Part shown: positions 14,637-39,904 of the stretch, one piece after another | Layout: each line of letters begins with the position of its first letter | How positions within the stretch are numbered: the first letter of the stretch is position 1 | Virus record (IMG/VR): IMGVR_UViG_3300037857_000053 | Span: 7,775 to 71,774 of that record | Strand: one strand, 5' to 3' | Length of the DNA stretch: 64,000 nt | Source of the DNA: a virus | Taxonomy: Duplodnaviria; Caudoviricetes | Made by a program: the position numbers and the translations under genes | Notes under the pieces: generated by a model | The model's database searches: none | What the model saw: only the letters and a program-made list of their open reading frames with translations | Told to the model about the DNA's origin: nothing

Positions 14637-14842
14637 GACGTTTCCCCAGATCCGCCAGTTTCAGGAGGACCCGAGCGCAGCCAGCAATCCACCGCGGCAG
14701 CCACAGGCCCTGGAACCTTGTTGGTGGTCACGTAGCGCCAGATTTGCGTCCTATTGACCCCAAGGTGCTTGGAAAGCGCGGACTGCCATCCGCGCTCCCC
14801 GAACAGGTCAATCCCTGCTTGTTTGAGTTCGTCACCGGTCAT
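14633..14842 (-). CDS. Small HTH (Cro-like) DNA-binding protein
   Basis: WQSALSKHLGVNRTQIWRY helix-turn-helix pattern. Confidence 0.75.
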   Translation of the reverse strand: MTGDELKQAGIDLFGERGWQSALSKHLGVNRTQIWRYVTTNKVPGPVAAAVDCWLRSGPPETGGSGETS

Positions 14843-16136
14843 TCTCGGTTTCCGTGATGAAACGGATCACAGCCTCGCTAAACCCGTTGATATGCGTCCA
14901 CTTCCCGTAGCCGACCCCGTTCTGGTAGCTGGCTACGTTGATCATGTACGCCTTCTCAGCCCGAGGATCTGGAACCCGGTCATGAGACTGCTCATCGGTG
15001 ATCACGATCAGCCGGTCACAAGGAACGCTCTCATTGATCCGCCGAACAGCGTTGCCAAGGTACGTGCCCATATGCGGCTGGGACCGGATGACAGCCTCAA
15101 CGCCAGCCATGCCCCGGCGGGCCGGAACCTCTCTGATCTCGTTGGAGAACGAGAAAACCCGAAGGTCTCCGTTGAGCACGGACGACAAAGCCGCAGCGGC
15201 ATCCAGGCGGGTCATGTCCGACTTGGCAGAAACATTGTCGTATTTCATGGATCCAGACACGTCCACCAGGACAACGGTCGTGCCCGACAGGCGCGGACCG
15301 GAGGCAATCGCCTCGCACAAGGCCTGATCAATCACCGGCTCCAGCTGCGGACAGGCCCGTGCGGCTGCCACATAGCTGAACGGGAACACCAGATCGGCCC
15401 CTTTGCGGGCAATGATCGCATCGCGAACCAGCTCCCGGTCACAGCCGGCCTCCATCATGCCGCGCAGATTGCGCAGCAAGGCCAGATAGCCCAGCTTGCC
15501 TTCCCGGATCAGCCGCTCGAAGGTTTCCTTCTTGTCGGCACCACCAGACAGCGATGTCTCCCAGGTGTCCGGCGTTGCCAGATCCTTATTGGCCAAACGC
15601 TTGAACAAGGCCGCCTGATCTTCATCCTTGGGCTTTGGGTGTGCCAGGAACAGAACATCCCGCAGCTTGATCGGACCCTCGCGGTCATACTTGGCCAGCT
15701 GGTACTCGGAGAACTTTCCAAGCGCCTTGCCAAGACCAACCTTCAGCTGTTTGGAGAGCGGCCGCTTTCCATCCTTCCAGTAAAGGGCCAGAAGCTCCGT
15801 GATCTCATCGGCGCGGCGGATGGTCTTGGTGATGGTGTCGGCCACACCCGGACCACCCCGGCGGATCTGATCGAGCAGCAGCATCAAGGGAGCATGGCGC
15901 AGCCCGTAAACGTTGCGAGCCTCGATCGCCAGCTCCTGGACATACTCGGGATCACACTTGGCAGCGGTCTCAAGGATTCGATCTGCAATGTCCTTGCCGT
16001 CCTCGTAGAAGGTTTTCTCCCAGAGCAAGCAAGACAGGACCGACCGGCGCAGGGCGGCTTCCGGGCTGATATGCCGGGCCGGACCCCCTTCATGGGTGCG
16101 CGGTCGAGAGATATTGGAGGCAGTGTTTAAACGCAT
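14832..16136 (-). CDS. rsr: Ro60/TROVE-domain RNA-binding protein with C-terminal vWA domain
   Basis: THEGG, FYEDG, AKYDR...KLRDVLFLAHPKP, TWET, YLALLRNLR and DVSGSM...VITDEQ motifs; start at MRLNT after GGGAG RBS (434 aa). Confidence 0.95.
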   Translation of the reverse strand: MRLNTASNISRPRTHEGGPARHISPEAALRRSVLSCLLWEKTFYEDGKDIADRILETAAKCDPEYVQELAIEARNVYGLRHAPLMLLLDQIRRGGPGVADTITKTIRRADEITELLALYWKDGKRPLSKQLKVGLGKALGKFSEYQLAKYDREGPIKLRDVLFLAHPKPKDEDQAALFKRLANKDLATPDTWETSLSGGADKKETFERLIREGKLGYLALLRNLRGMMEAGCDRELVRDAIIARKGADLVFPFSYVAAARACPQLEPVIDQALCEAIASGPRLSGTTVVLVDVSGSMKYDNVSAKSDMTRLDAAAALSSVLNGDLRVFSFSNEIREVPARRGMAGVEAVIRSQPHMGTYLGNAVRRINESVPCDRLIVITDEQSHDRVPDPRAEKAYMINVASYQNGVGYGKWTHINGFSEAVIRFITETENDR

Positions 16137-16155
16137 TCTCGGCTCCCTGGTTGAG

Positions 16156-16313
16156 CAAGCCATCTGGAGAATGCGGGAACAGTCGAAACCGGGTAGCCGT
16201 AACCACCACGGCGTAACCAGGGTTGATGGACCTGGGGGGCTTACAATCTGGTGACAGGAATCGAACCTGCGAAGTAACCGGATCCTAGCGCCACGCACTC
16301 GCCAGATGGCTTG
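16156..16313 (-). ncRNA. Y RNA candidate 1 (tRNA-like module with T arm)
   Basis: 12-bp terminal stem CAAGCCATCTGG/CCAGATGGCTTG; GTGGCGCTAGGATCCGGTTACTTC...CGACTGTTCCC core; GCAGG-TTCGATT-CCTGT T arm. Confidence 0.8.
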
Positions 16314-16334
16314 AGGGGTTAGCCGAACGGCGAA

Positions 16335-16474
16335 AACAGCAGAGGGGAACAATCGAACCCGGAACGTTGTGCTCTACCAACTGAGCTACCCTCCAAGTAG
16401 GAGGAGCAGGACTCGAACCTGCGACCAAACGATTACAAATCGAAGTAGCCGAACTCTACGCCACCTCTGCTGTT
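16335..16474 (-). ncRNA. yrlA: Y RNA candidate 2 (YrlA-type, circularly permuted tRNA domain)
   Basis: 11-bp terminal stem; core GTGGCGTAGAGTTCGGCTACTTC...CGATTGTTCCC; T arm GCAGG-TTCGAGT-CCTGC, loop-closed acceptor stem, then D arm GCTC-AGTTGGTA-GAGC. Confidence 0.88.
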
Positions 16475-24126: not shown

Positions 24127-24300
24127 TCAAGAGCCTTTCGAGTCGTTGCGCTTGAAGCCCTTCAGTTCCCCGTTCTCCACAATGGCCCTGGTCCCAGCCT
24201 TTACGACCTGCTTGCCCTCGGTGATCGTCCCATCCGGAAATTCGACCTGGAGCTTGTCGGAGGCTTTACCGACGAACCGGTCTCTGCTCGTTTCGCTCAT
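24127..24300 (-). CDS. 57-aa protein coupled to the MuF-ART gene (missing from the ORF track)
   Basis: MSETSRDRFVGKASDKLQVEFPDGTITEGKQVVKAGTRAIVENGELKGFKRNDSKGS; start overlaps the ART gene stop. Confidence 0.55.
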   Translation of the reverse strand: MSETSRDRFVGKASDKLQVEFPDGTITEGKQVVKAGTRAIVENGELKGFKRNDSKGS

Positions 24301-25985
24301 GGTGCGTCCTTCTTGATCACGTCCGTAAATGGCAAGATGTCCGCCTCAATCTCCCAAAAATCACCGTTGAAGTGAACCTTGGTGATTTTCTGGGCCGTGC
24401 CTGGTGGAAGGATAATCTCATCCTCGCGCAAGCTGCCCGCCATCGCAGGATGCCCCTTCTTGACCCGATACCGAAACACGGCCTGACCCGGCGCTCCGGA
24501 TTTTAAAAACATATCAGCGCCGTCCCGCAAGGTGGCGGTGGACAAGAAACCCTTGTCGCGGATGATCGCGCCCTTCAGGTCCGAGATCTCCATGGTCTGA
24601 TTGGGCAAGAGGCTGTGGATGCTTTGGTGCCCGCGATAAAGGTAGGCATCCGCTGGCATTCGGGCATCGCTCCGATCGAACATCTTTTGAAGGGTTTTAA
24701 TCTTCTTGATGTTTTCCGGGTCTATCGCCTTTTCGTAGCGCTTCGGGTCGATCTCCGGATCAACGCCGCGCAAGTACCCGTTCATCGACCGGTATCCAGG
24801 GCCGATGTAACGCTGGTGCGCAGCATGTTCTGGAGTGCCCTCTACGAGCATGGTTTCCGGGTTGAAGATACGGTCCTGGTCCACCAGGTTGCCCAAGGTA
24901 TTGTCTGAGACCGGTTTGAAATTGGTGATCGTGCCATAGACCCGCTCGACCTCCGGCTGCTTGGATACATACCGTCCAAGGCCCGCTTTTTGAAACGCGG
25001 CCCGGTTGGAGGTTGCCAGCTCGGCCAGGGTGATCTTGGTTCCATCCTTGGCGATGAACTTGTCCGCCTTCACGCCTTGCTGGAACAGCTTGAACCGGCT
25101 CGGGCCCAAAACACGCTCCTGCATGTCCGGATCCTGGCGCTCCAGCCAGTCCTTGTATTCAGGGATGTCCTCGCCGTCGTCCTCTTTCAACAGGCCGATG
25201 ATCGTGGACCGGCAGCTGGGGTGTGCAGGCGGGATCGGACCCTTGCCCGTCTGGTAAACGGACGCATGACGCCCCTGGCAGATCGGCGTGGTGCGCGAAT
25301 CCAGGATCGAGATCCACTGGTACTTCGGAAAGATGTCCTTGTTCCGGTCGATCGTCTCCATGTGAACCCGGTTAGTCACATGATTGACCGAGGTTCGCAC
25401 CACCATTTCAGCCCGGCCGCGCATCAGACCCAGCGTGGAGGATCCGTTGTTCTTGCCCATCAGACGCGCAATGATCTGGTCATGGCTCTCGCCTTCCGCC
25501 ATGCCGATATTGACCTGCCGGCGGATTTCGTTCTGGTGGCCGATTTCCAGCCCCTGGAACCAGTCTTTCAGATAACGCCCGTTCAAGGGCTCCGATTCAA
25601 TGATCTGGTTCAGCATCTTGGCATCGAGCAATTCCAGGTCGATCCCGCCGTCAATCCCAAGCTGACCCGCCTGGGCAGACAGGAAGTCGAGGGAAAACCC
25701 AGACTCAAAGCTGCCGATCTCCGCCAGAGCCTCATAGAGCTGATCATTGATCGCTGCGTGGGCCTCGGTGATCCCGCCATCCACCTTCTTGAGAAGACGC
25801 TCCAGAGCCTTGCGCTTGTTCGGCGTCATCCGGCCAGATGTTGGAAGGTTCTCCAGAAGCTGTGAGCGGACATCCCCGGCGACATCCTGCAACAGGGCAT
25901 GGATTTTCTTGATCTGCCCCTTGGAGAAAAGCTCGACCCCAACACGGTGCGAGATCAGCGTGTCAACGAGCTTCTGACTGGGCAT
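24297..25985 (-). CDS. MuF (SPP1 gp7-like) minor head protein fused to a C-terminal ADP-ribosyltransferase domain
   Basis: WISILDSRTTPIC and PPAHPSCRSTI (MuF); YRSMNGYLRG, LYRG, DKGFLSTA and REDEIILP (R-S-E ART). Confidence 0.9.
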   Translation of the reverse strand: MPSQKLVDTLISHRVGVELFSKGQIKKIHALLQDVAGDVRSQLLENLPTSGRMTPNKRKALERLLKKVDGGITEAHAAINDQLYEALAEIGSFESGFSLDFLSAQAGQLGIDGGIDLELLDAKMLNQIIESEPLNGRYLKDWFQGLEIGHQNEIRRQVNIGMAEGESHDQIIARLMGKNNGSSTLGLMRGRAEMVVRTSVNHVTNRVHMETIDRNKDIFPKYQWISILDSRTTPICQGRHASVYQTGKGPIPPAHPSCRSTIIGLLKEDDGEDIPEYKDWLERQDPDMQERVLGPSRFKLFQQGVKADKFIAKDGTKITLAELATSNRAAFQKAGLGRYVSKQPEVERVYGTITNFKPVSDNTLGNLVDQDRIFNPETMLVEGTPEHAAHQRYIGPGYRSMNGYLRGVDPEIDPKRYEKAIDPENIKKIKTLQKMFDRSDARMPADAYLYRGHQSIHSLLPNQTMEISDLKGAIIRDKGFLSTATLRDGADMFLKSGAPGQAVFRYRVKKGHPAMAGSLREDEIILPPGTAQKITKVHFNGDFWEIEADILPFTDVIKKDAP

Positions 25986-27470: not shown

Positions 27471-28970
27471 TTATCCGATCAGTTTGAACACGCCCCCCTC
27501 GCCTTGATGGAGGCAGTGAAATGCGCCCGATGCACCGTCCACCTGGTCGTCATGGGAGGCTTTCGGGAACATGGCGTGTTCCTCGATAAACTCCGCATTC
27601 CAGTCGGCGCGCTTCAAGATCACGTTCCCGGCCTTGACTTGGCCGGCGAAGGGATCGGCGCGATTGAACTTGGATCCAAGCTCGCCTTCTGGAGCCTTGC
27701 GGACCGTGTAGGGAGACAGGATTCGGGCATAGTGGTTGAAGGTAATCTTGCCGCCAGCGCCCGGATCCTGCGGGATCCACTGGGCACAGGCATAGCCGTC
27801 CATTTCAGCTGTCTGGCGTAAGCGCCGTTCCAGCTCGTGCGGCTCCTCGCGGAACCGGATCACGTTTTCGATCCAGTAAAGGCCATCTGGCGTCCGGCGC
27901 ATCTTGACCCCGACTGTCCAGTCCGGATCGTTGCCTTGACGCTCCTCGGTCCCCGCCAAATCCCAGCGGCGCAGAACTTCACCGTCTTGCGGGATCTCAT
28001 CGGCATAAAGCCACCAGGACCGATGGAACAGGCCGCCTTCGCGGGCGGTTGGGCGCTGTTGAAGCTGGCCGGAGGACCCGAACGGGCCATACTCGACCTC
28101 GCGTTCCTTCATCTTCTCGACCGAGTACCGATTGGGCCACAGGAGCTGATTGACGGTCTTGTCCCGGCGCGGATCCTTGAACCCGATCGAGGATTTGACT
28201 GGATGCGGGTGGTTCGGCTCATAAAAGGCCGGTAGGCACAGATGATCCCAGCCAGATTCCTTGGCCAGGATGTGCCCGGTCAGATCCTTCTCGTGAAGGC
28301 GCTGCATAATGACAATGAACGCGCCGTTTTCTGTGTCGTTCAAACGCCCCTTGATGGTCTCCGACCACATGGTAAGCGCATCCTCGCGGGATTTGTCGGT
28401 CATGTCCGCGGCTGGGTGCGGATCGTCCACGATGACGATGTCACCGCCCTCCCCAAGCATCCCTGAGGAGAAAGACCCGGTGTAACGCGCGCCGCCGGAC
28501 AGGTTCGAATACCGTCCACCGGCCTGCTCGTTCGGATCCAGCTGATAAACTTCGCCCCAGCGCTCCTGATACCAGGGCGACAGGATTAAGGCTTTGGTTT
28601 TCTTGGCGTCTCTCAGCGCCAAATTTCCACCGTGCGCGATAGAAAGGAACCTTGTTCCAGGCCCAAGCCAGGTGTCTGGAATAAAGGGCGTGTGCGATCC
28701 AGTCTTGTCCAATGAAGTCGTCTGACCCCACACCCAGGCGGGGAACATGATGTTGACGCCGATCGACTTCATGTGGCGCGGCGGGATGTTGATGATCAGC
28801 CTGGAGATCTGACGGCGGGCAATCGCCTCCAGATGGGCGCATATCGCCTCAATATGCCATCCGCCGACGAATTTCCCCGGCTCCACCACATGCCAGGCGC
28901 GCTGCGTGAAATCGTAAAGAGACTGCTCGCAGATCGCACGGTCAAGGAGCTGGGGAGACTGGATCTGCAT
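27471..28970 (-). CDS. terL: Terminase large subunit
   Basis: INIPPRHMKS, IVIVDDPH, VIMQRLHE, RRWDLA and HDDQVD motifs. Confidence 0.97.
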   Translation of the reverse strand: MQIQSPQLLDRAICEQSLYDFTQRAWHVVEPGKFVGGWHIEAICAHLEAIARRQISRLIINIPPRHMKSIGVNIMFPAWVWGQTTSLDKTGSHTPFIPDTWLGPGTRFLSIAHGGNLALRDAKKTKALILSPWYQERWGEVYQLDPNEQAGGRYSNLSGGARYTGSFSSGMLGEGGDIVIVDDPHPAADMTDKSREDALTMWSETIKGRLNDTENGAFIVIMQRLHEKDLTGHILAKESGWDHLCLPAFYEPNHPHPVKSSIGFKDPRRDKTVNQLLWPNRYSVEKMKEREVEYGPFGSSGQLQQRPTAREGGLFHRSWWLYADEIPQDGEVLRRWDLAGTEERQGNDPDWTVGVKMRRTPDGLYWIENVIRFREEPHELERRLRQTAEMDGYACAQWIPQDPGAGGKITFNHYARILSPYTVRKAPEGELGSKFNRADPFAGQVKAGNVILKRADWNAEFIEEHAMFPKASHDDQVDGASGAFHCLHQGEGGVFKLIG

Positions 28971-29370
28971 GGGCTTTCTTGGAAATCCGCTCCAGCTCCT
29001 TCAGATCCTCGACACTCAGGTTCTTCAGATCTGTGATGGTTTGAGTGATGTTTTCGACCTGCAACGGTTTCCCAGGTGCGGTCGAGACTTCCAGCTTGTC
29101 GTGCCAGCCCCGCGTCTTGCCCTTGCAGCGCAGGAAAAACTTGATCGCCTCCCGATCCCCGTCACGGATCAGCTCGATCAGCTTGAGTTCCGCCAAGTCC
29201 AGGATCTCGTCGGTGAAGGAATCGGCCGCAGCGCGCAGTTCCGGATCACCATTGACCCAGGTCGAAACCGTCTGCCTCGCAAAGCCGATTTTTTGCGCGG
29301 CCATAGAGATAATGCCGCCCGACGCCTTCAGCGCCTCGATGATGATCTTGTTGTCAGGCCGCTTTTTCAT
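28942..29370 (-). CDS. terS: Terminase small subunit (HTH)
   Basis: N-terminal HTH, AIKFFLRCKGK..GW; directly upstream of terL. Confidence 0.8.
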   Translation of the reverse strand: MKKRPDNKIIIEALKASGGIISMAAQKIGFARQTVSTWVNGDPELRAAADSFTDEILDLAELKLIELIRDGDREAIKFFLRCKGKTRGWHDKLEVSTAPGKPLQVENITQTITDLKNLSVEDLKELERISKKAHADPVSPAP

Positions 29371-30106
29371 CGGTCTTTCCCGCGTGAGTGTCAGCCTCGT
29401 CAGCGCCGGTCTCTTTCTCAATCTGATCGAGACGTTCGCTTGCCAGGTCGATCATGGCGCGCACTGCGAGGGCTTGGTTGACGATTTCTTTGGTGTCCTT
29501 TGTCCGGACCATTGTTTCGAAGAAGTCTTGGTAGTCCTTCATTCGAGCGAGGATGTGGGGTGTTTTTTCGATGCGTTTTTGCACCTCGTCCCACTTCTTT
29601 TGAAACTCGTCCTTGTCCTCTGGGAGGAAGGATAGGACCAGCTCCTCGTACTTCGGCATTCCGATTGAAAGCTTTTCGAAATCGGGGTCATCGAGGAGCT
29701 GCAGGTCTGTGTCTGTTATCCCTGAGTATTTCTTCTCCAGGACATCGAGGCTTTCATAGAGAGAGCGGAGGATGTTTTGGTCGTCTTCGCCTGTGATGGC
29801 GTTGTGAGCCAACTGGATGGCTGTTTGACGGGCTTGGGTCAGGTCTCCGTGGATCTGGATGACGTGGATCTTTTTCAAGCCAGCAGCAACGGCTGCTTTC
29901 ACCCGGTGATTGCCGGACAGAACCTTCAGCTTGTCCTGGACCTCATAGACCAAGGGCGCGGATGTCAGGCAGCCGTCGCGTTTGATGTTCTCGACCAACT
30001 GATGGAACTGGCGCTCGCGCATGTGACGGGCGTTGACCTCCAGAAGGTGGAGATCGCGAGGGTTGACCTCGATGGTGCTCGACTTGAGCGCTTCGTTATT
30101 TGCCAT
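29354..30106 (-). CDS. ParB/Srx-domain protein
   Basis: VNARHM, LVENIKRDG and VLSGNHRVKAA motifs. Confidence 0.85.
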   Translation of the reverse strand: MANNEALKSSTIEVNPRDLHLLEVNARHMRERQFHQLVENIKRDGCLTSAPLVYEVQDKLKVLSGNHRVKAAVAAGLKKIHVIQIHGDLTQARQTAIQLAHNAITGEDDQNILRSLYESLDVLEKKYSGITDTDLQLLDDPDFEKLSIGMPKYEELVLSFLPEDKDEFQKKWDEVQKRIEKTPHILARMKDYQDFFETMVRTKDTKEIVNQALAVRAMIDLASERLDQIEKETGADEADTHAGKTDEKAA

Positions 30107-31496
30107 AGCTGGTTTTGACCTCCCGGGCCCGATCGTCTTTGAAGTACCGCTTGAACCAATCCGCATAGATCTCTTGCGGGTGATCCTCGCGGACGGGCGC
30201 GTGGTAGTTGATGATGTAGCGGGATCCGGATCGTTCCGATTCATCGGCCTCCATCCGCTTCAGAACCTTGTAAGGTCCGCGGTATTTCATCGAGGCAGGT
30301 TGATTGGAACGCACGGTTGTGACGACACCCAGGGCCGGACGGCGCAGGAGCGTGTTCTCGCCAACGTGGATCACTTCCTTGCAGGTCGCCAGCATGGCCA
30401 GCAGCTTGGAAATCCGGCCGTAGCGGGTCGTGGCCGTATCGCTCAAAAGGTAAAGGTAATCGCCCTTGTTGTAGGGGCCGATGCCGTGCTTTGGCGGGGT
30501 GAAGGTCAAGATGCCGGCCAGCATGTCATCCAGATACACCAGGAAATTCAGCGGACCGGATGTCCATTGAATGGTCTCCTGCAGGTAGACCGACTTGATG
30601 TAATCGGCATAACCGGCCTTGCAGCGGCGGATCTCAACCTTGGTGTCTGCCGTGATCCGATCAATGTCCACCGGCTTGTAGCGGAAGGGAGTGACTGCTT
30701 CGGTGCTGGATTGATCAACCACCGACGATGCGGCTGTGTTGGAGTAGACGTAGAACCTCGGCTTCATGCCAATGCGGTGGTAGCAGGCCAGCTTGCCGGG
30801 GATGTTTTCGCGGTAAACCATCACATAGGGCACACCGGAGGCATCCACGCGCTCCATCAGCTCCGGGAAATCCCCTGGATTCCAGAGACGGTAATCGGCC
30901 TCCTCGTACTCCAGGTTCTCGGCAATGAAGCGGAACCACTTTTCATACCACCCCTCGATAAAGGGCGCGGAGACGATCACGCCGGATCCGTTGGCCATTC
31001 CGGTTTCCAGATGGTCCCGAAAATCCCCGTGATGGTAAGACGACAGGCGCAGCTCGGCGGCAAGCGCCAAAGCCCGGGAATAGGCCGTAGCGGCATAATC
31101 GAGCAGCCGTGTTTCGTAGTAGCGGAAATGACGGCGGTTGTACTCGTTGTCCGAGCCATAAAGACGGCCGGCGAACAAGGCCACCAGCATCGCGCCAACG
31201 CGAATGGAATAGGGCTGCCCCTCCAGGATTTTCTCCCAATGAGCCAGGCGGCCCTTGAAGGAAAACGGAACCTCCTGCTTCAAGGCCAAGCCTGCCAGGA
31301 CGCGGGACATCAGCGACACGTCATTGCCGTGCATGTCCAGCTGTGGCCAGCGTTTGCCGATGGCGCGTTCGAAGGTGAAGGTCCCCGAGCATCCGACATA
31401 GCAGCCGTTCCAGCTTGAGAAATCGACCGCCTTAAGGATTTGCATCATGCAAACAGGCGGGATCGCGCCGTTGAAGACTTCGTTTGACTGGAACAT
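30096..31496 (-). CDS. N6-adenine-methyltransferase-like domain fused to a Mom-like GNAT domain (DNA modification)
   Basis: Degenerate MTase motifs YVGCSG, GNDVS and VIVSAPF; C-terminal LVYLDDMLAGILTF, YLYLLSD...SKLL, VTT and SMKYRG pattern resembling Mom; start at MFQSN (466 aa). Confidence 0.65.
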   Translation of the reverse strand: MFQSNEVFNGAIPPVCMMQILKAVDFSSWNGCYVGCSGTFTFERAIGKRWPQLDMHGNDVSLMSRVLAGLALKQEVPFSFKGRLAHWEKILEGQPYSIRVGAMLVALFAGRLYGSDNEYNRRHFRYYETRLLDYAATAYSRALALAAELRLSSYHHGDFRDHLETGMANGSGVIVSAPFIEGWYEKWFRFIAENLEYEEADYRLWNPGDFPELMERVDASGVPYVMVYRENIPGKLACYHRIGMKPRFYVYSNTAASSVVDQSSTEAVTPFRYKPVDIDRITADTKVEIRRCKAGYADYIKSVYLQETIQWTSGPLNFLVYLDDMLAGILTFTPPKHGIGPYNKGDYLYLLSDTATTRYGRISKLLAMLATCKEVIHVGENTLLRRPALGVVTTVRSNQPASMKYRGPYKVLKRMEADESERSGSRYIINYHAPVREDHPQEIYADWFKRYFKDDRAREVKTSYGK

Positions 31497-31509
31497 GGGG
31501 ACCTGAATT

Positions 31510-31575
31510 TGGAGCGGGTTGAGGACTCGAACCTCCGACCTGAGTGGACCCCAGGCCGGTCCCATGACTTCCCGC
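31510..31575 (-). ncRNA. tRNA-Gly mimic 1 (66 nt, UCC at the anticodon position, encoded CCA)
   Basis: GCGGGAA GUC-AUGG-GAC CGGCCUGG-GGUCCAC-UCAGGUCG GAGG-UUCGAGU-CCUC AACCCGC U CCA. Confidence 0.85.
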
Positions 31576-31582
31576 ATGGTTG

Positions 31583-31648
31583 TGGAGCGGCTACCGGATT
31601 CGAACCAGCTCGGCAGGTGGTCCCCGCCGAGGCCCCAGGGCTCGCCGC
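31583..31648 (-). ncRNA. tRNA-Gly mimic 2 (66 nt, ACC at the anticodon position, encoded CCA)
   Basis: GCGGCGA GCC-CUGG-GGC CUCGGCGG-GGACCAC-CUGCCGAG CUGG-UUCGAAU-CCGG UAGCCGC U CCA. Confidence 0.85.
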
Positions 31649-31696
31649 AAGTTGTTGGAATTATTCGATATTTTACGGTTTTCTGTGACGCTTTTC

Positions 31697-37723: not shown

Positions 37724-39250
37724 ATGAACCAGATTATCGCACGAGCCACGGTGGAGGATATTGTCCGCCACCGGAACCAAGCCCTTGAGCTCTATTCGGA
37801 AGCTTTTGAGCAGATCCGGCTTGCCGACATCAAAATCAAAGAGGCCAAGCGTGTCGCCTCCCTCGCCTCCCCTGGCATCAACGGCTACAACTATTCCCAG
37901 GCCAAAGAGGTCGAAGCGTTTCATAAAGCCGTCGATCTCCCAGATGCCGATCAGTATATGCGGGTTGCCCGACGCTTGGTTGACATCAATGTCTGGTCCT
38001 ACGTCATCGAGCGGACCGACCTGGAACGCTTGATGGACAAAGAAGCCAAAGACAAATTGCACGAACAGTTCCGGTACGTGCCGGAGCGGACCGATCGCAA
38101 AGGCGAGATCATCAATCAAGACGAGATCGATAAGGGCATCCCGGAGGTCTCGGTTGAAAACATCCAGGCCACTGTTGAATCCTTCGCCCTTCAAGCGGAT
38201 GAAATCTTCAAACGCGGCATTGCGAATGCCTTTTCAAAACTGGACCGGCGGTTCAAGTCTCACGACGGCTTCAAGATCGGATCCCGGATCATCCTTCAGC
38301 GGGTGTTCGATGAATGGGGTCATATGTCCTATGCCTCCCGGATGCGGGACACGCTAATTGACGTCGAACGCGCCTTTACCATCGTGGACAAGGGTCTGAC
38401 CGATCACAGCTATACCGAAGCCATGCGGGCGCTTGAACATGACCGCAGAGGTTTCTCCGGAGCGCGTCAAAGCGAGATCGAAACCGAGTATTTCCTGATC
38501 CGGGGCTACAAGAACGGCAACGCTCACCTGTGGTTCAAACGCGATGACCTGGTTGAGAAGATCAACAAGATCCTGGCCGACTATTACGGCGAGGTCATTG
38601 CGGACGGCAATCAGGCCCAAGAAGATATCTTCGCCAACATCAAGACAACGCCTGCCCGGTTTTATGGATTCTATCCGACCCCGGAACCGGCCGCGGATTT
38701 TCTGTTTGACGGCCTACCTCTATACATCGGACGCGAGGACAAACCCTTGCGGATCATGGAACCCTCTGCTGGCACCGGCAACCTGGCACGGCGGCTTGTA
38801 AAGCGCCGAGAGGGCAGCGAATCCCAAGGGTGGGGCAAGGATCCGATCAAGTACACCTACCAGCACAAAGTGGACTGTGTTGAGATCCAACCGCATCTTG
38901 CCGATCAACTGGAGGCTCACGGGGCTTTCAATCGGGTCTACAAGTGCGATTTCCTCAGCCTTACGCCGGAGGATACCGGGCTTTATGACGTCATCGCCAT
39001 GAACCCACCGTTCGACCGGGAGCGCGACATTGACCACGTTGTCCACGCCTTCAAATTCCTGAAACCCGGTGGAACGCTGAAAGCCATCATGTCCGCCGGC
39101 ACCGAGTTCCGGGAAACCAAAAAGGCAAAGGCTTTCCGGGAGCTTGTCGAAGCCAATCGCGGCGAATGGCGGGATCTTCCCCCAGGGTCCTTTTCCGAAG
39201 TCGGGACCAACGTCAACACGTTGATCGTCAAAATGCGCAAGCCCGGCTAA
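37724..39250 (+). CDS. DUF4942-like domain fused to an N6-adenine DNA methyltransferase
   Basis: GFYPTP, MEPSAGTG, VDCVEI, DFL and AMNPPF motifs; N-terminal FKIGSRII...FKNGN.HL.F-type domain. Confidence 0.88.
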   Translation: MNQIIARATVEDIVRHRNQALELYSEAFEQIRLADIKIKEAKRVASLASPGINGYNYSQAKEVEAFHKAVDLPDADQYMRVARRLVDINVWSYVIERTDLERLMDKEAKDKLHEQFRYVPERTDRKGEIINQDEIDKGIPEVSVENIQATVESFALQADEIFKRGIANAFSKLDRRFKSHDGFKIGSRIILQRVFDEWGHMSYASRMRDTLIDVERAFTIVDKGLTDHSYTEAMRALEHDRRGFSGARQSEIETEYFLIRGYKNGNAHLWFKRDDLVEKINKILADYYGEVIADGNQAQEDIFANIKTTPARFYGFYPTPEPAADFLFDGLPLYIGREDKPLRIMEPSAGTGNLARRLVKRREGSESQGWGKDPIKYTYQHKVDCVEIQPHLADQLEAHGAFNRVYKCDFLSLTPEDTGLYDVIAMNPPFDRERDIDHVVHAFKFLKPGGTLKAIMSAGTEFRETKKAKAFRELVEANRGEWRDLPPGSFSEVGTNVNTLIVKMRKPG

Positions 39251-39463: not shown

Positions 39464-39904
39464 ATGCGACCAATACTCACCGGATGGTGGTTTGCAAAAC
39501 CAGAAGCCGAGTACATCAAAATCGGCATTTCACGGGGTTCGCCGCGCGGCCAATCCGGTTTCCGGAAGTACATGGATCTGGCCCCAGGGGCCTGGTTCAA
39601 ATCGGTCACGCCGGATGAATACCAGCGGCGGTTCAATCAGCAGCTAGGTCAGCTCGACCCTCACAAGGTTGCTGCAAGGATTTATGATCTGGCAGGGGAT
39701 CGAATCCCTGTTCTGTGCTGCTACGAGCGGCCAGATCTCATCCACAAAGGGGAGCTTTTTTGCCACCGGCATTTTGTGGCGAAGTGGTTGGAAGATCACT
39801 TGGAAATTGAGGTTCCCGAACTGGATTTTCCGAAGCTTAACCGGTTCAAGTTGCTCGAAAAACACGGCATCGAACCGGTATCCCATCAACCGAACCTGAT
39901 CTAA
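39464..39904 (+). CDS. DUF488-like protein
   Basis: IGISRG.P, LAPG, Y..RF..QL..LDP, VLCCYE and CHRH.VA.WL motifs. Confidence 0.75.
   Translation: MRPILTGWWFAKPEAEYIKIGISRGSPRGQSGFRKYMDLAPGAWFKSVTPDEYQRRFNQQLGQLDPHKVAARIYDLAGDRIPVLCCYERPDLIHKGELFCHRHFVAKWLEDHLEIEVPELDFPKLNRFKLLEKHGIEPVSHQPNLI

Follow-up and report, generated by a model that had tools for sequence, protein, structure and literature searches.

Tandem 66-nt elements beside a phage Dam-GNAT gene point to a family of reduced tRNA-Gly-like RNAs, possibly glycyl donors for DNA modification

Why should a provirus carry, directly upstream of a gene that fuses two enzyme folds, a pair of elements that resemble tRNA-Gly yet look unsuited to reading codons? 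The question is raised by a 64-kb window (by which is meant the whole stretch of DNA analysed here, a piece of a 71.8-kb IMG/VR provirus record), in which a first-pass annotation made from the letters of the sequence had described two tandem tRNA-Gly mimics of 66 nt each, lying 7 nt apart. Direct reading of the minus strand confirms this description. Copy A runs from 31648 to 31583 and copy B from 31575 to 31510, with the 7-nt spacer CAACCAU (31576..31582) between them. Both divide exactly as had been proposed into acceptor strand (7 nt), D arm (3-4-3), anticodon arm (8-7-8), T arm (4-7-4), acceptor strand (7 nt), U and CCA; there are no linker nucleotides and no variable loop, and every stem sequence quoted in the annotation is correct.

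The two copies share GCGG at the 5' start and CCGC-U-CCA at the 3' end, so that each has U73 and an encoded CCA. Copy A has the anticodon-like loop GGACCAC (anticodon ACC), the T loop UUCGAAU, the D loop CUGG and a G6.A67 mismatch in the acceptor stem, while the corresponding loops of copy B are GGUCCAC (UCC), UUCGAGU and AUGG and its acceptor stem contains both A6.A67 and A7.A66. Column identity between the copies is 81%, and the differences that fall in stems are paired changes. For each copy folded alone the cloverleaf is the minimum-energy structure, although the predicted fold adds one further G-C pair, giving an anticodon stem of 9 bp and a loop of 5 nt (GACCA or GUCCA). The reported replacement of U33 by G therefore depends on how the loop is drawn. 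The z-scores of the single sequences are modest (-1.3 and -2.0); relatives were accordingly sought, and the case for a fold beyond chance rests on those relatives.

Neither copy is recognised by the usual detectors. ARAGORN finds no tRNA gene in the 64-kb window, and Rfam gives no match there at gathering scores; relaxing the latter to E values of up to 10 yields a sole 19-bit match to tRNA-Sec which straddles both copies, much the weak echo that had been anticipated. A BLASTN search of the region against phage and plasmid records returned only short T-arm matches to ordinary tRNAs. Rfam is equally without a match at the loci of eight relatives, in keeping with the earlier remark that no RNA family of this fold is known to have been described.

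Relatives were found by means of a covariance model, R1, built from the two window copies alone and searched over 80 viral contigs that encode a homologue of the downstream enzyme, here termed Dam-GNAT. Such a model had been suggested in the first-pass annotation, and it retrieves elements of the same shape from other phage contigs: there are 36 matches at E ≤1, 35 of them on the strand of the enzyme gene, and when folded independently they adopt the same architecture with different stem sequences. The covariance model yielded 27 distinct family members in all, and a second model, R2, was built from the family. Copy A scores 90.5 bits with R1 and 76.9 bits with R2, copy B 89.2 and 66.6 bits, respectively. 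Among the loci scanned with R2, two strong tandem copies occur only in this window. R1 also gives two weak tRNA-like matches elsewhere in the window, at 16244-16305 and 16396-16465 on the minus strand (15.5 and 16.1 bits), which sit just upstream of a 506-aa ORF (14832-16352, minus strand).

Covariation within the family was assessed quantitatively for 23 distinct sequences. In the model-fitted alignment, 90% of cells pair, compared with 39-49% when the partners are slid by 1-3 columns, and in 16 of the 22 pairs both partners change. Covariation is scored at 0.63, against no more than 0.08 for slid partners, and none of 500 shuffles reached that value. The covarying pairs comprise all three of the D stem, all eight of the anticodon stem and three of the four in the T stem, while acceptor pairs 1-4 are invariant. 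Since this alignment had been fitted to the model, the count was repeated on a structure-blind MAFFT alignment, in which 78% of cells are paired (40-52% for slid partners), the covariation score is 0.34 (no more than 0.16 for slid partners) and the D and T stems again covary. The shared fold with compensatory changes claimed from the two copies thus extends to their relatives. The pair formed between D-loop position 18 and T-loop position 55 covaries too, being G:U in nine sequences (including both window copies) and A:G in 15, that is in 24 of the 27 members; at 19:56, 21 sequences have G:C and one has U:A. These covarying tertiary pairs indicate that the RNAs keep the elbow of the L-shaped tRNA, for which the window copies supply GG from the D loop and UUCGA from the T loop.

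The identity elements by which the bacterial (α2β2) GlyRS knows its tRNA are G1-C72, C2-G71, G3-C70, U73, C35 and C36. The first-pass annotation had found this complete set in both copies, as did we, and had taken homologues without the pairing or without the end and CC anticodon elements as grounds for refuting its reading; instead, the set is kept in 26-27 of the 27 distinct relatives. The 5' GCG is present in 26 of the 27, CGC-U on the 3' side and CC at positions 35 and 36 in all 27, and the 3' CCA in 24. By contrast, position 34 may be A, U, G or C and position 33 G, C or U. Position 6:67 is a conserved mismatch. It is G.A in 19 of the 23 distinct members, although the enzymes are only around 35% identical, and this G.A may either mark the RNA for the transferase or act as an anti-determinant against EF-Tu.

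A canonical cloverleaf has linker nucleotides 8, 9 and 26 and a variable region; its T stem has 5 bp, as does its anticodon stem, which closes a 7-nt loop containing U33. The window copies fit neither the corresponding Rfam model (RF00005) nor that of ARAGORN. Nucleotides 8, 9 and 26 and the variable loop are absent, the anticodon stem has 8-9 bp, and positions 33 and 34 vary in the family, so that the decoding features are altered as the annotation had it. Judged by their sequences, the RNAs look chargeable with glycine yet not built for codon reading. The mismatches at 6:67 and 7:66, the 4-bp T stem and the non-decoding anticodon arm lend indirect support to weak binding by EF-Tu and to exclusion from translation; the mini-tRNAs may be glycylated while avoiding both EF-Tu and the ribosome, as the annotation proposed. 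The best explanation for the elements themselves is that they are genes for L-shaped, 66-nt RNAs derived from tRNA-Gly.

Are these RNAs tied to the enzyme beside which they lie? R2 matches occur in 43 of the 80 viral Dam-GNAT loci, 36 of these loci having a match of at least 30 bits; where at least 5 kb of upstream flank is available, 28 of 43 loci hold one. All but one of 45 R2 matches are on the strand of the gene, and 41 lie upstream of it. The distances between element and gene cluster at 22-33 nt (L023, L027, L050 and L051), at around 0.8-1.05 kb and at around 2.9 kb, with a maximum of 8.8 kb. As a control, R2 was run over 675 kb from 60 viral loci that have a related large terminase but no Dam-GNAT gene: none has a match of at least 30 bits, and one match scores 29.4 bits. 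Fisher's test of Dam-GNAT loci against controls gives p ~2e-11, a value to be read with the non-independence of related contigs in mind.

The association was also approached from the opposite direction, using a DNA pattern of the acceptor ends (GCGGCGA...GTAGCCGCTCCA) and ignoring the protein. This pattern matches by chance in GC-rich DNA, so that raw counts are meaningless without the covariance model. All viral contigs together gave 30 matches, of which 21 are true elements, as recognised by R2 or by identity with earlier matches. Twenty of these 21 are in contigs that hold the gene, and the exception (L105) sits at the end of a fragment whose completeness is rated at 20%; ten of the 30 matches lack the fold, and none of those has the gene. 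In bacterial genomes 117 of 120 pattern matches are not elements. Three are true elements: in L202 and L297 the gene is downstream on the same strand, while the third (L226:6929-6995, minus strand, 59 bits) belongs to an incomplete alphaproteobacterial MAG in which no Dam-GNAT gene was found. In the combined scans, therefore, 22 of 24 true elements are in contigs with the gene, and of the chance matches checked none holds the gene and none is recognised by R2. The L226 element is close to a DUF488 gene (L226:5694-6101), and the window has a weak, sub-threshold DUF488-N3a-like ORF (39464-39904) around 8 kb from the module.

The association is not universal. The contigs with the nearest homologues, L001 and L011 (54% identity) and L007 (60%), have no element in the available DNA; among Dam-GNAT loci in general, between about one third and one half are likewise without one there. 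The enzyme may consequently not need a private RNA: element-free enzymes may use host tRNA-Gly, as does the Mom protein discussed below, or the element may be located farther away. A search with ARAGORN at 85% thresholds for partners in the match-free loci produced noise, with implausible 'tRNAs' on both strands, and was discarded. We hold with high confidence that this is a real family of tRNA-Gly-derived RNAs, functionally tied to the Dam-GNAT enzyme module.

The enzyme gene of the window (30096..31496, minus strand) encodes a 466-aa protein that joins a Dam fold to a GNAT fold, with PF22555 at the N-terminus (116.8 bits) and PF22559 at the C-terminus (113.4 bits), both above their gathering scores and in that order; the protein also matches phrog_7858 at E 2e-62. 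Its ATG at 31496 is 13 nt past the CCA of copy B on the same strand and is the start given in the public record, whereas the longest ORF (30096..31577) overlaps copy B, so that an ORF caller does indeed swallow one of the copies. Next comes a ParB_N-like gene (29354..30106, minus strand), identified by Pfam and PHROG matches (phrog_7405), which probably begins at an ATG at 30106, giving an 11-nt overlap with the fusion gene at its stop; the longest ORF extends to 30244. The same strand continues with the small and large terminase genes (27471..29421, minus strand; Pfam and PHROG matches), the portal gene and a gene in which MuF is fused to an ADP-ribosyltransferase. A homologue of the ParB-like gene is directly downstream of the fusion gene in all 80 viral loci, and the order of module followed by terminase is repeated in L005, L007, L034 and Faecalibacterium phage FP_Brigit. 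Upstream of copy A, a consensus scan picked out a sigma-70-like promoter candidate (31660..31689, minus strand; -35 GTCACA, 18-nt spacer, -10 AATAAT) that ends 12 nt from the 5' end of the copy; this is a pattern match only, with one site found against 0.2 expected in shuffles. Positioned behind this candidate promoter of their own and co-oriented with the two-gene module, the elements are probably co-transcribed with it.

Two further genes of the window may be mentioned. The fusion at 24297-25985 (minus strand) combines a MuF domain with an ADP-ribosyltransferase exoenzyme domain (PF04233 and PF03496), and from its domains looks like a virion-delivered effector. On the plus strand, 37724-39250 encodes a 508-aa protein with DUF4942 and a C-terminal match to phage DNA methyltransferase PHROGs; a counterpart of this gene is near the module in L007, and the protein may be a second DNA-modification gene product of the phage.

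The Dam-like fold of the enzyme matches Dam-DNA complexes, but its motif IV is S-A-P-F in place of the (D/N)-P-P-(Y/F/W) of an active N6-adenine methyltransferase. In the 28 homologues compared, this motif always keeps its proline and never opens with D or N; also conserved are G-x-S-G and N-D-V motifs, which resemble those of a SAM site. The departure at motif IV suggests a module for flipping or holding a base rather than a standard N6-methyltransferase, although, with the SAM-site-like motifs kept, the domain could catalyse a reaction itself. The C-terminal domain folds as a GNAT. Its fold match to Mom, the GNAT enzyme of phage Mu, ties with those to ordinary acetyl-CoA GNATs, so that the donor could be an acyl-CoA. 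Nor is there similarity to Mom at the level of sequence or profile: a Pfam scan of the enzyme at E values of up to 10 gives only PF22559 and no match to the Mom profile, PF25680, which Mu Mom itself gives, and alignment of the family profile with Mu Mom by hhalign has a probability of 0.07. A search of the PDB with the sequence profile of the enzyme family found nothing.

The gene is also present in three groups of cultured phages, infecting Mycobacterium, Gordonia and Faecalibacterium. In Mycobacterium phages of the Jeon/Taptic/Megabear group, an annotated tRNA-Gly(tcc) abuts the homologue. Jeon has the same gene order as the window (tRNA-Gly, Dam-GNAT homologue, next gene), but here the tRNA is a 72-nt cloverleaf accepted by ARAGORN and annotated as ordinary, and the enzyme is only 23% identical. 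This type of tRNA-Gly is probably the full-size end of the same system. In the group of Gordonia phage Clawz, the 219-nt gap upstream of the gene holds an unannotated tRNA-Gly-like sequence with a UCC loop. In Clawz itself (NC_071004) this sequence, at L118:3836-3908, precedes gp29, which is the Dam-GNAT homologue, and has the ends GCGCGAC...GUCGCGC-U-CCA; ARAGORN misses it. With ARAGORN-accepted cloverleaf tRNA-Gly genes at the more distant homologues of L052, L056, L083 and Jeon, the family spans full cloverleaves to the 66-nt form of the window. Other tRNAs appear at distant loci: a tRNA-Lys(ctt) at L120:3237-3313 in FP_Brigit, 163 nt before the gene, and a tRNA-Arg(cct) 2.5-4.8 kb upstream of it in two others (L073:599-674 and L088:578-654). 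These may mean that other amino acids are used, or may be coincidence. In several unrelated loci a tRNA-Met(cat) is found around 10-300 nt from the glycine mini-tRNA (L005:435-510, L077:1444-1519, L084:1021-1097, L052:4235-4308 and L021:1610-1684).

What, then, might the RNAs do for the enzyme? Mu Mom transfers glycine from Gly-tRNAGly to N6 of adenine in double-stranded DNA, giving an adduct that becomes 6-NcmdA by rearrangement (Silva et al., Nat Commun 2026, PMC13219725; preprint 10.1101/2023.03.24.534169). Every host tRNA-Gly isoacceptor works with Mu Mom, whose specificity appears to be directed by the 3' end and the amino acid (PMC13219725); the host tRNA-Gly is presented as scavenged, the main text of that paper being without the term 'tRNA-like'. 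A fold that binds adenine in DNA, a GNAT fold and a linked, non-decoding RNA of glycine identity are most simply read together as Mom chemistry with a private donor. In this scheme the RNAs, with their CCA already encoded, would be released by RNase P and 3' trimming, and host GlyRS would charge them with glycine, the bacterial identity elements all being kept. Their shape (an anticodon stem of 8-9 bp, absence of the variable loop and of nucleotides 8, 9 and 26, unconstrained positions 33 and 34, and mismatched acceptor pairs) would bar them from decoding. The GNAT domain would then transfer glycyl from the charged mini-tRNA onto one of the bases of the phage DNA, with an adenine sitting in the Dam-like pocket as the likeliest acceptor, and the outcome would be a protective, Mom-like hypermodification achieved without draining the translational pool of tRNA-Gly. 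Expression, processing, charging, the role as donor, the target base and the product are all steps that we infer. Overall, we regard it as fairly probable that the mini-tRNAs are private, non-decoding glycyl donors for Mom-like DNA hypermodification.

Other explanations were weighed against the same evidence. The RNA could be a partner of the enzyme without giving up its amino acid, serving as an acylation substrate (as for TacT), a scaffold, an activator or a decoy keeping the enzyme off host tRNA-Gly. Genomic linkage shows partnership but not its direction, and an acceptor end kept, G6.A67 included, across enzymes around 35% identical would fit recognition by any protein. Moreover, TacT-type GNAT toxins, whose fold likewise recognises the 3' end of Gly-tRNAGly, take this molecule as substrate (cited in PMC13219725). 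These toxins, however, acetylate the tRNA-bound amino acid with acetyl-CoA and block translation, and they have no DNA-binding domain and no packaging context. Here a methyltransferase fold and a ParB-like gene stand ahead of the terminases in every locus, which argues for DNA as the target, and a tRNA-directed, toxin-like activity would have no obvious place in a packaging operon; a role other than donor seems to us rather unlikely. Less likely still is an action in cis, in which the elements would be tRNA-like signals for processing or stabilisation of the Dam-GNAT mRNA (entry points for RNase P or RNase E) and would influence its translation and 5' end. The closeness of copy B to the ATG, the gaps of 22-33 nt in four other loci and a promoter candidate whose position ahead of copy A makes co-transcription likely would all suit such a signal, but in many loci the gene is 0.8 to 8.8 kb away with other genes between, and C35, C36 and U73 are invariant although processing does not need them.

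Some phage tRNAs are known to stand in for host tRNAs that have been cleaved. The elements, often beside a phage tRNA-Met, might serve as decoys or replacements where host defences cleave or modify tRNA-Gly, their link to the enzyme reflecting no more than shared early or late expression. A replacement tRNA must decode, which these elements cannot plausibly do; furthermore, the link is specific to one enzyme family (22 of 24 elements, against none of the 60 control loci), and the pattern scans show no wide spread in phages without the Dam-GNAT module, so that we consider this improbable. That the elements are odd but working tRNA-Gly genes supplementing the reading of GGN codons is suggested by the ARAGORN-accepted cloverleaves at distant homologue loci (L052, L056, L083 and Jeon). 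We reject this as very improbable for the window copies, which both ARAGORN and Rfam refuse (Rfam refusing eight relatives as well), which lack the 8/9/26 linker and the variable loop, and which have an anticodon stem of 8-9 bp with a loop of probably 5 nt; in the family, moreover, G, C or U stands at 33, and among the nucleotides at 34 is A, which could not be modified. Finally, prophages often integrate into tRNA genes, and the elements could in principle be dead relics of host tRNA-Gly genes, duplicated at the att site on integration. Selection on the fold is instead shown by compensatory changes, which reach each of the four helices as well as a tertiary pair; the elements are inside the phage by the packaging genes and not at its end, and the same arrangement occurs in free phage genomes; contradicted by the covariation, this last reading has almost no credibility and was dismissed.

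The donor reading, which we continue to favour, has instructive points of contact with known systems. Mu Mom (PDB 8bv8; PF25680) is a single GNAT domain with an HTH-like insertion that scavenges host tRNA-Gly, whereas the window enzyme has its GNAT domain, unrelated to Mom in sequence or profile, fused to a Dam-fold domain, and is accompanied by a ParB-like partner and its own reduced tRNA-Gly. Staphylococcus possesses non-proteinogenic tRNA-Gly species that are charged by GlyRS, perform poorly in translation and are consumed by the GNAT-fold FemXAB peptidyltransferases. These are full-size cellular cloverleaves whose T-stem pairs are altered, and their glycine goes to a peptidoglycan precursor; the RNAs of the window, in contrast, are phage-borne, 66 nt in length and without linker or variable regions, and their presumed acceptor is DNA. 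FemX is among the tRNA-using GNATs cited in connection with Mom (PMC13219725). A parallel in genomic terms is found in the ssrA islands of Dehalococcoides, where a 76-bp tRNA-Gly-like 'pseudo-tRNA' was noted in mom homologues with no function proposed (McMurdie et al. 2011, PMC3146451). There, too, a tRNA-Gly-like element is tied to a GNAT DNA-modification gene, beside a ParB-domain gene and on a mobile element. The Dehalococcoides pseudo-tRNA, however, lies inside the coding start of a true Mom homologue and has a complete tRNA fold, while the window RNAs are free-standing, reduced, duplicated and associated with a different enzyme family. A search of the literature revealed no paper linking the PF22555/PF22559 family to a tRNA.

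A still broader reading may be put forward, though only tentatively: that phages encode private, non-decoding aminoacyl carriers as cofactors for enzymes composed of Dam fold, GNAT fold and ParB-like partner, that the amino acid placed on DNA is set by the identity of the co-encoded tRNA (mostly glycine, possibly lysine or arginine in FP_Brigit, L073 and L088), and that the 66-nt form would be a minimal RNA still accepted by aminoacyl-tRNA synthetase and transferase but not by the ribosome. These ideas are directly testable, since cultured phages carry the module (Mycobacterium phage Jeon and its relatives, Gordonia phage Clawz). For annotation, the consequence is that such RNAs are invisible to tRNA finders and Rfam, and that in the window a longest-ORF call swallows one of them. 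As to the biology, tRNA-dependent DNA modification has been shown only recently and for one enzyme, Mu Mom, acting with a host tRNA. If the donor reading is true, this chemistry would extend beyond Mom to another GNAT family, unrelated to it and found widely in phages of Proteobacteria, Actinobacteria and Firmicutes, the RNA family would be a natural minimal substrate of GlyRS, and in phages a dedicated carrier would have arisen by evolution to keep DNA modification apart from translation.
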